Program-made: the position numbers and the translations under genes | Shown here: positions 48,565 to 50,280 of the stretch, piece after piece | Position numbering within the stretch: the stretch's first letter is position 1 | Layout of the letters: each line of letters starts with the position of its first letter | From: Oscillospiraceae bacterium | GTDB lineage: Bacteria > Bacillota > Clostridia > Oscillospirales > UBA929 | Length of the DNA stretch: 64,000 nt | Assembly: GCA_031254575.1 (NCBI GenBank) | Contig: JAIRUE010000069.1 | Coordinates: 2,330-66,329, forward strand | Direction: 5' to 3' | Notes under the pieces: generated by a model | The model's database searches: none | What the model was told of the DNA's origin: nothing | What the model saw: the letters and a program-made list of their open reading frames with translations, nothing else

Positions 48565-50280
48565 TTACCCATCTGTTGTTTCAAAGAGTTTCCTTGTGCT
48601 TTCCGCGACGCCGGATATATGTTCATACGCCGTGTTTACGCTCCGGCTGATCTCTCTTATCATCTCATTGACAGACCCTATCGCGCCGGTTGCCTTTACC
48701 GAAGCGTCCTTTGTCTGGTTGGCGGAGTCGCTGGAGCGTTTGGCGAGTTTTCGTATCTCATCCGCAACCACCGCGAACGCTTTTCCGTGCTCACCCGCGC
48801 GCGCGGCTTCAATCGAGGCGTTGATCGCTATAACATTGACCATCGCGGCAACTTCCTCCACATCGGCTATTGTACGGTTGTACGCAGAAATAGACTCTGT
48901 TATATCATCAATATTGTCTACGATATGCTCCGTTATTCCTTTTATCCCGGAGGTATCCAAGAGTATCGTTTCAAAACTGCTCAGATTGGCTTTTGCATCC
49001 GAGTATTCCCGTGAAATATCGTTACGCGCTTTTTCCATACAGTTCGCCGGGGTATTGATGCCTTTGGCTATCCCTTGCGCCATTTCACGGCATGAATCGC
49101 ATCCGCACGCGCCGCAGTCAAAATGCCTTGACTCTTCATCCAGCTTTCCGAGGGAAACATACGCCTTTTCAAGAGTTGCCGGCGTGACCGGGACCGAGCG
49201 GATCGGAACCGGGCTGTATATCCTTATAAAATCCTCCAGCCGCAGCGTTTCGTCAAAATTCTCAAAGAGTTTGTCAAGGTAGCCGGAATCTTGAATGGCC
49301 GATTGACGCAACCCGTCCATCTTGGTGTTAATGTCAAAAATATCCCCGCCATGTCTGCACCCCGTACCCATATTGCACCCTTCGGCGCAGTTTAATACGT
49401 CAAACAGAACGGGTAGTTTTGATACCTGTTGCTTGGCATACTCGTCCAAAGCCTTGTAAACGGTCTGCTGTCCTTCCGACTTATCAACCCGCAGGGATTT
49501 GCCGATATAATGCTCGACACTTTCCTTCAAGCCGCCCGGCATCGGGTACAGCGAGCCAAGCCCGGCCTCATAATGGTCAAAACCGCTTGTCTCACGCGGG
49601 AAAACAGTATTATGGGACTCTATGTATCCGTACAGGCCGTTCATCGTCACATTGTAATCGACAAGACGGGTGGCCTCAAACTCATGTGTTTTCGCCACGC
49701 ACGGGGAGAGTGCCGCGATTTTTGTCCCTACCCTTTCGTATTTATTCATAAATACGGCGGTGCAGAGCATGGGGGAATGTACGGGGGACAGATATTTCAA
49801 AAGCTCATTGCGGTACATCAAAATGTAATTCACGATGACGGGGCAGGGCTGTGATATGACAGGCTTTGGGCCGTGTTTCCGTATGTAACGGATGTGCGCC
49901 CAAGTGCAGATGTCCGCTCCCAGCGATACGTCGTATATTTTCCGCACCCCTATCGAGCGCAGCCACGTGAACAGCCGCCCTGTTTCCTCAAAATTGGTCT
50001 TTGCCGCCGGGGCCGCGAACAAGCTGATTGGTACGCCTTGTCTCAAATCATCAAAGAACCGCTCCGTATCATCGGTATACCGCCTTGACCCGTGACGGCA
50101 GGCGGTCAGGCACGCGCCGCAGGCAATACACTTTCTGTTATCGACCTCAACGATGATCTTTCCGTCTTTTACGCGCGTGATATTTGCCTCGTCAACAGGG
50201 CATACTCTGACGCAGCGGTTACAGCCCACGCAGTTGTCCAAATTATTGTGAATGATCTTTCGCATACCAGCCTTCTCCAC
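48565..50280 (-). CDS. cytoplasmic fusion protein: 2x[4Fe-4S] ferredoxin + [FeFe]-hydrogenase large-subunit-like domain + Cys-rich motif + methyl-accepting chemotaxis signalling domain
   Basis: [12 protein letters not shown] and [11 protein letters not shown]. H-cluster-like motifs [17 protein letters not shown] and [12 protein letters not shown]. Then CGACGCDSC and the MCP tip [36 protein letters not shown]. No TM helix. Confidence 0.85.
   Translation of the reverse strand: [571 protein letters not shown]

Follow-up and report, generated by a model that had tools for sequence, protein, structure and literature searches.

Does a soluble chemoreceptor built around an [FeFe]-hydrogenase domain sense H2, and does it steer the cell that makes it? 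The question is raised by one gene, at 48565..50280 (-), in a stretch of 64,000 nucleotides from an Oscillospiraceae bacterium (contig JAIRUE010000069.1; the whole 64-kb stretch is called the window below). Its product, the receptor, joins two ferredoxin-type cluster motifs, a hydrogenase H-domain, a third cluster motif and the signalling hairpin of methyl-accepting chemotaxis proteins (MCPs). With moderate confidence we read it as a cytoplasmic H2-sensing chemoreceptor of the type that HydDB calls [FeFe] Group C2.

The open reading frame (ORF) runs over 571 aa from a GTG at 50280. Translation probably starts at the ATG at 50265 (566 aa), because the relatives begin at the internal Met ("MRKII") and this codon is preceded by the ribosome-binding site (RBS) GGAGAAGG; residue numbers are those of the 571-aa frame throughout. 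The protein is soluble, as an earlier note on this DNA had stated: no transmembrane segment was detected, the highest Kyte-Doolittle 19-residue mean, 1.31, lying inside the MCP hairpin. Its parts are the following.

48565..50265 (-): coding sequence of the receptor, 566 aa if read from the probable start at ATG 50265
50089..50250 (-): N-terminal ferredoxin-like domain with two [4Fe-4S] motifs, C17/20/23/27 and C51/54/57/61 (Pfam, conservation)
49351..50073 (-): [FeFe]-hydrogenase H-domain, aa ~70-310, with the [4Fe-4S]H ligands C146, C194, C298 and C302 (Pfam, mapping on CpI, Foldseek)
49039..49122 (-): C-terminal cluster motif C389-x2-C392-x4-C397-x16-C414, PF04060 (Pfam, conservation, PMC8163306)
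48568..49038 (-): MCP signalling hairpin, aa 415-571, with the tip A-G-E497-H-G (Pfam, PDB matches, heptad count)

Pfam places a Fer4 dicluster (Fer4_7/Fer4_10) at aa 11-64, Fe_hyd_lg_C (PF02906) at aa 90-305 (E 4.9e-24), an FeS domain (PF04060) at aa 387-414 (E 3.7e-5) and MCPsignal (PF00015) at aa 451-565 (E 3e-22), and no PAS domain at E<=0.1. The earlier note had given both ferredoxin motifs the same ending; both are present, but the second ends C-R and not C-P. Similarly, the "extra" motif CGACGCDSC that it singled out is a cluster motif, but merely the first part of the known Cx2Cx4Cx16C, and C394 within it is not conserved, being Tyr in most relatives.

The H-domain that the note had recognized is supported by sequence and by predicted structure. 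Sequence matches in the PDB, near 1e-13, are the Group A hydrogenases CbA5H, HydABC HydA and CpI, while the hairpin matches Tsr, Aer and TM1143 at 1e-13 to 1e-10; the canonical MCP hairpin described in the note is confirmed. An AlphaFold (AF2) model built from a 30-sequence alignment has a predicted local confidence (pLDDT) of 73.5 overall and of 85-92 across most of the H-domain, and the best 50 Foldseek matches of this model in the PDB are all [FeFe]-hydrogenase catalytic subunits, the first being 8zqd (E 3e-16, about 430 aligned columns). No sensory hydrogenase stands among these PDB matches, neither by sequence nor in the Foldseek best 50. The nearest solved structures, CbA5H and CpI (Group A), share with the receptor the fold of ferredoxin-like and H-domains (Foldseek E 3e-16 to 1e-13); they differ by an identity of about 20% only, and by the TSCCP motif and the proton pathway, which the receptor lacks. 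It also remains below the NCBIfam cut-offs for catalytic groups, with 123 bits against 450 for TIGR04105 (Group B1) and 79 against 406 for TIGR02512 (Group A).

To read the active site we aligned the receptor family with the CpI sequence, which was verified against 1FEH/4XDC (573/574 identical). Motif 1 is SQPCP: as the note had it, the relay cysteine is lost and the ligand cysteine kept (CpI C299 corresponds to P145, C300 to C146). Motif 2 is intact (C355 to C194, K358 to K197, E361 to E200), with Ser at the position of M353 (S192), and in motif 3, also rightly identified, M497 corresponds to L296, C499 to C298 and C503 to C302. P231, P324 and S319 are found as P91, P170 and S165. The receptor thus keeps K358 and E361 (CpI numbering) together with all four cysteines that ligate [4Fe-4S]H, while TSCCP with C299, by which the catalytic Groups A and B are recognized, is absent. 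What remains of the proton pathway is altered as well—E279 is H129, E282 is deleted and R286 is Y132—in a loop whose alignment is uncertain. In total 16 cluster-ligating cysteines provide the ligands of four [4Fe-4S] clusters, and the receptor could potentially house a [2Fe] subsite in addition. C173, at the position of CpI I327, is kept in 91% of the clade and stands beside P324/Q325, a loop in contact with the diiron site. We also observe that C125 and C308 are conserved in subsets of the clade only.

These residues compare well with those of sensory hydrogenases, as the earlier note had suggested for Group C. In the sensory sequences of HydDB, position C299 is occupied by Ala (43%), Cys (17%), Pro or Ser (about 10% each), and position M353 by Gly (51%), Ser (32%) or Thr (17%) (PMC10055695), so that Pro-299 and Ser-353 of the receptor lie within the reported variation. 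Two sensory enzymes, TmHydS and TamHydS, both take up [2Fe]adt and show a slow, sensor-like behaviour (PMC8163306, PMC10055695). TmHydS of Thermotoga maritima (Group C, M2f) has, like the receptor, two N-terminal [4Fe-4S] clusters, no C299 and a C-terminal four-cysteine cluster; it differs by Ala-299, Gly-353 and Ser-497 (Pro, Ser and Leu in the receptor) and by a PAS domain, whereas in the receptor the MCP hairpin is attached directly after the C-terminal cluster. TamHydS of Thermoanaerobacter mathranii (Group D, M2e) is closer in its pocket: it shares M353S, M497L, Cx2Cx4Cx16C and the absence of PAS (PMC8163306), and the pocket of the receptor equals that of TamHydS save for Pro-299. At the opposite, TamHydS has no fused output, its partners being presumed to act in trans. 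The C-terminal motif of the receptor is exactly the Cx2Cx4Cx16C signature described for the M2f and M2e (Group C/D) enzymes (PMC8163306).

HydDB defines Group C2 as "Chemotactic (putative)", with a possible H2 sensing through MCPs (Sondergaard et al. 2016, PMC5037454). By its sequence the receptor is a match to this published description: an H-domain joined to an MCP signalling domain, for which a link from H2 sensing to chemotaxis was proposed. The architecture has stood in this catalogue since 2016, its members ranking as putative H2 sensors. Nothing essential separates the receptor from Group C2, its classing being by architecture and motifs. For some authors a PAS domain defines Group C (PMC11216029); the receptor has none, which leaves the C2 definition unaffected since this rests on the MCP fusion. 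A study of acetogens discarded its Group C2 matches without the H-cluster-coordinating motif (PMC9431212); we infer that these were ordinary MCPs, similar to the C2 reference sequences in their MCP portion, and therefore do not retain this discarding as evidence against the C2 class. In the literature we found no report of a characterized hydrogenase that is fused to an MCP domain or carries Pro-299.

More than 120 full-length proteins share the architecture of the receptor and are 57-68% identical to it. An exhaustive search with the sensor part (aa 1-420) over 1.84 billion cluster representatives gave 3121 matches at E <= 1e-3 and 591 at E <= 1e-30, and in every one of the best 150, in proteins of 265-1760 aa, the sensor module is N-terminal. 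Conservation was measured on 137 representatives clustered at 50% identity. There the four [4Fe-4S]H cysteines and the four cysteines of the C-terminal motif are kept in 100%, the ferredoxin-motif cysteines in at least 90%, K358 in 97%, E361 in 99%, and P231 and P324 in 100%; the substitutions themselves are stable too, Pro-299 being found in 88%, Ser-353 in 90% and Leu-497 in 96%. Such a pattern is one of purifying selection over the whole clade.

How could such a receptor work? It is probably dimeric. In a host equipped with HydEFG the H-domain would hold an H-cluster, which would bind H2 and, like TmHydS and TamHydS, oxidize it slowly; the electrons set free would shift the accessory clusters in their redox state. 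From there the C-terminal cluster may pass this change on to the hairpin, because in the AF2 model its last ligand, C414, sits where the long C-terminal signalling helix makes its first turn. The hairpin would finally modulate CheA through CheW and so bias swimming along gradients of H2 or of H2-linked redox state. Comparable devices exist in Aer, Aer2 and HemAT, where a cytoplasmic prosthetic group sensing redox or gas is coupled to an MCP hairpin, and the PDB entry 31cj, an "Aerotaxis receptor", matches the hairpin of the receptor (E 4e-13). Certainly the modules differ: Aer, Aer2 and HemAT hold their FAD or haem in a PAS or globin domain and usually possess a HAMP domain, while the receptor has an Fe-S/H-cluster module and no HAMP.

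Several points weigh against this reading, and a first group of them concerns the cluster. Eukaryotic Nar1/NARF keep similar motifs without a [2Fe] subcluster, so that H2 sensing, which we infer from the retained ligands, may not follow from them: taken alone such motifs would not prove a [2Fe] subcluster. Moreover no member of the Pro-299 clade is characterized, and M497L impairs [2Fe] insertion in prototypical enzymes (PMC10055695). The principal competing explanation is built on these points. The receptor would be a sensor for redox or energy taxis whose H-domain binds, Nar1-like, only the [4Fe-4S] cubane, and its chain of four clusters would equilibrate with the pool of ferredoxin and NAD(P)H, so that CheA is informed of redox poise rather than of H2. 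Besides Leu at M497, it draws on Pro at C299, on the vanished proton pathway (E279 to H/Y, E282 deleted, R286 to Y), and on the ferredoxin-like N-domain, the normal docking site of redox partners, which is retained; and motif retention alone cannot tell it from H2 sensing. However, TamHydS, with the same Ser-353/Leu-497 pocket, binds [2Fe]adt (PMC8163306), the contacts to the CN ligands (K358, P231, P324) are kept in 97-100% of the clade, and HydEFG is present in the single isolate genome examined. We hold this explanation possible, but rather unlikely.

A second group of points concerns the output. The window contains no che, flagellar, hydrogenase or maturase genes. None of the che and hyd genes lies within +-10 kb of 82 related loci either, an absence that is listed here with the unfavourable points but is uninformative either way. 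In the AF2 model the hairpin and its linker reach a pLDDT of about 60-68 only, which makes the coupling mechanism speculative. The arms of the hairpin measure about 12 and 10.6 heptads (about 22-24 in total), with no HAMP, and no methylation consensus [ASTG]xx[EQ][EQ]xx[ASTG] is conserved: the single match (aa 472) is near the tip and missing from 29 relatives. Without methylation sites, adaptation would not be accounted for.

A counterweight comes from Acetoanaerobium noterae DSL2, a cultured bacterium that encodes a 631-aa MCP-fused relative of the same architecture, 38% identical to the receptor and with the signature AQPCP / SPCIGKxxEFE / NCSEGC / Cx2Cx4Cx16C. The earlier note had proposed a check for che genes and hydEFG in the genome; made in this relative's genome, the check finds both. 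A hydE-hydG-hydF operon scores 477, 635 and 524 bits against NCBIfam equivalog cut-offs of 255, 312 and 326, and a cluster reads flhA-flhF-flhG-pilZ-cheB-cheA-cheW-cheC-cheD-sigD. The sequence concerned, NZ_CP154629.1, is labelled "plasmid pTPELB2" in PLSDB; it is effectively a chromosome, because it has 2.63 Mb with flagellar, che and hydEFG operons. As a side observation, the A. noterae MCP-hydrogenase gene (141822-143717 of NZ_CP154629.1) stands among three dCache-GGDEF/EAL/HD-GYP genes of cyclic di-GMP signalling.

One may ask whether the output is flagellar chemotaxis at all. The receptor might exert a Che-like control of surface motility, biofilm or gene expression, or be inactive cargo in a host without Che proteins, which would agree with the window devoid of che and flagellar genes, with the horizontal gain of the gene, with the very short hairpin and its lack of a conserved methylation consensus, and with sister sensors that drive histidine kinase and GGDEF outputs. 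On the other hand the ORF is intact with all family-invariant residues, an RBS and a terminator belong to it, and a strong predicted promoter lies upstream; the host lineage, Spo0A-bearing Clostridia, is commonly flagellated, and the che operon of A. noterae is linked to the flagellum. We consider such an output, or such a loss of function, quite improbable.

A last explanation looks at the chemistry of the clusters. With 16 cluster-ligating cysteines and a probable O2-labile H-cluster, the receptor could be a sensor of O2, CO or oxidative damage, in which oxidation or degradation of the clusters, or binding of an H-cluster inhibitor, drives escape. Anaerobes living in steep O2 gradients would gain from it, and TamHydS forms a defined state with O2 (PMC8163306). 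But a destructive signal is ill-suited to a reversible chemotaxis, a lower CO sensitivity is reported for sensory hydrogenases (PMC8163306), and we have no specific evidence in favour of this idea, which seems to us very improbable.

H2 sensing remains the function that we favour for the receptor, and its relatives show to what else the same sensor is connected. Output domains were counted with Pfam in a subset of 61 of the 137 representatives: MCPsignal in 24, HATPase_c and HisKA in 21 and 20 respectively, 18 of those with receiver domains, GGDEF in 6, SpoIIE in 2 and STAS in 1, with GAF (8/61) and PAS (about 5/61) also in the count. Even modules at least 50% identical to the sensor of the receptor divide into 7 with histidine kinases, 6 with other outputs and 3 with MCPs, the assignment to histidine kinases being crude and motif-based. 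Mixed outputs among close relatives are typical of an input domain, so that the "QPCP" sensor module behaves as a portable input cassette, apparently swappable among MCP, histidine kinase, GGDEF and PP2C outputs. For the same reason—close relatives of the sensor also carry histidine kinase, GGDEF and PP2C outputs—"C2" may be the name of an architecture rather than of a lineage. We would go further only as a conjecture, which we judge unlikely: the QPCP cassette (Pro-299/Ser-353/Leu-497) would form a biochemically distinct branch of sensors, horizontally spread across many phyla, that either binds H2 with essentially no turnover or, free of [2Fe], reports on the ferredoxin pool.

In GTDB species genomes we found 499 relatives. 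The best 80 of these 499, which are 46-64% identical, come almost entirely from metagenome-assembled genomes (MAGs) with termite-gut names, e.g. "Candidatus Fibrimonas termitidis"; the MAG series Th196/Co191/Nt197/Lab288 and JAIS/JAIT appear, from isolate names, to be termite-gut derived as well. Among the best 80 the Bacillota are represented by Oscillospiraceae, Defluviitaleaceae, Lachnospiraceae and Peptococcaceae, next to Fibrobacterota, Desulfobacterota, Synergistota, Cloacimonadota, Acidobacteriota, Deferribacteraceae and Rhodocyclaceae, thus at least eight phyla. Because such a high similarity crosses phyla, this distribution implies that the sensor has probably spread horizontally within a habitat rich in H2 and steeply graded. 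Motility and chemotaxis genes are reported to be over-represented in the termite-gut habitat (PMC3625147).

The DNA around the gene points to a transfer too. The receptor gene lies in an islet of 3.8 kb (48261-52078) with 49% GC and a GC content at third codon positions (GC3) of 0.58-0.60, between housekeeping genes (HisRS, AspRS, NifS-like and M23) of 61-69% GC and a GC3 of 0.73-0.81. Direct repeats of 51 nt, 50/51 identical and 3869 bp apart, bracket it, and the horizontally acquired islet beside an alcohol dehydrogenase (ADH) gene that the earlier note had surmised is thereby borne out. Its features are these.

52079..52129 (no strand): att-like direct-repeat copy at the tRNA-proximal end, composed of the 45 nt at the 3' end of tRNA-Val and a further 6 nt (repeat search)
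48210..48260 (no strand): second direct-repeat copy, a displaced tRNA-Val 3' fragment, att-like, at the distal end (repeat search)
52085..52160 (-): tRNA-Val(GAC), the putative integration target, with its own perfect promoter at 52200-52173
50411..51613 (-): iron-type ADH (Fe-ADH), about 400 aa from ATG 51613 with the RBS AAAGGAGA, upstream of the receptor (Pfam Fe-ADH and ADH_Fe_C)
51739..51808 (-): promoter-like TTGACA-17-TATAGT (51808-51780), overlapped by an inverted repeat (sequence)
48419..48445 (-): terminator-like hairpin and T-run, 120 nt past the stop codon of the receptor

After the displaced repeat copy, a hairpin at 48177-48215 resembles the original terminator of the tRNA. All this is the classic footprint of a site-specific insertion at the 3' end of tRNA-Val, by which the receptor gene and Fe-ADH would have arrived with the help of an integrase that is no longer present: the repeats enclose no ORFs but those of the ADH and the receptor. 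CIME-like (cis-mobilizable) elements insert at tRNA 3' ends and duplicate the tRNA 3' segment as direct repeats. The islet has in common with them and with other tRNA-targeted islets the flanking duplication and the deviant GC, but it is only 3.8 kb long, with two cargo genes and no integrase, excisionase or transfer gene. Against plasmids its DNA gave short MCP-hairpin matches only, and no known mobile element was identified. A chimeric assembly as the cause of the jump in GC was rejected, since both flanks share the GC3 of the host (0.73-0.81) and the two repeat copies bracket the insert.

Inside the islet the gap between ADH and receptor is 145 nt with no terminator, so they are possibly co-transcribed. 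A perfect 23-nt inverted repeat (51739-51761 / 51769-51791, ATTTGATATAGTCATTATCGATA, with a 7-nt spacer) overlaps the -10 of the ADH promoter and is likely a candidate operator for some regulator; it is unlike the Rex consensus. The ADH remains below every NCBIfam equivalog cut-off. We had considered ADH and receptor as a functional pair and rejected this, the pairing being kept in 0/82 related loci: tblastn with the ADH, with the 157-aa ORF described next and with an E. coli CheW sequence gave no match in these loci (1.24 Mb), and the three loci of nearest relatives that were inspected are unrelated housekeeping contexts. The 157-aa ORF (47535-48008, -) is flanked by the NifS-like gene on one side and the displaced tRNA fragment on the other; it has an N-terminal hydrophobic segment, no Pfam match and a GC3 of 0.67, intermediate between host and islet.

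Elsewhere in the window a second low-GC patch (~22000-29200, 0.41-0.49) abuts tRNA-Tyr (29179-29263, -) and carries BlaI/BlaR1-like genes (27100-28808) and genes for a PepSY protein, a TetR regulator, a radical-SAM enzyme and a hydrolase; a search there for a direct repeat derived from the tRNA gave none, and its island origin is unproven. Two fluoride riboswitch aptamers (Rfam RF01734) lie 1.8 kb apart, at 17132-17211 (-, 42.6 bits) and 18958-19035 (-, 45.7 bits). The first lies upstream of a Na+/H+ exchanger gene (15893-17083) and the second upstream of a 277-aa ORF (18228-19061) that is followed by a gene for a GGGtGRT-family protein (17218-18231), and three successive genes for Sel1-repeat proteins (18961-21169, +; 273, 197 and 224 aa) adjoin the second. 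An 880-aa protein encoded at 61302-63944 (-) consists almost entirely of RCC1 or RCC1-like repeats (Pfam WD40_RLD 507 bits, 11 RCC1 stretches). A Spo0A homologue at 53711-54544 (+; Spo0A_C, E 9e-15) places the host in an endospore-forming clostridial lineage. The AspRS of the window is at most 56% identical to that of any GTDB species representative (best in Oscillospiraceae and Acutalibacteraceae); an identity topping out at this level suggests that the host family is poorly sampled.

Anaerobic gut ecosystems have H2 as their central currency, and to our knowledge no bacterial H2 chemoreceptor has been demonstrated, the Group C2 proteins being the standing candidates. The locus brings no new concept in this respect, since the idea of an H2-sensing chemoreceptor is already published as Group C2. 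What it adds is the Pro-299 signature of a clade, a sensor cassette that appears swappable, and a tRNA-Val islet as the probable vehicle of a receptor. It also brings forward A. noterae: this cultured and sequenced organism has HydEFG and a flagellar che operon alongside a relative of the receptor, which makes it tractable for biochemical and H2-taxis tests. Should the [2Fe]-free alternative be true, the receptor would represent a form of anaerobic energy taxis.

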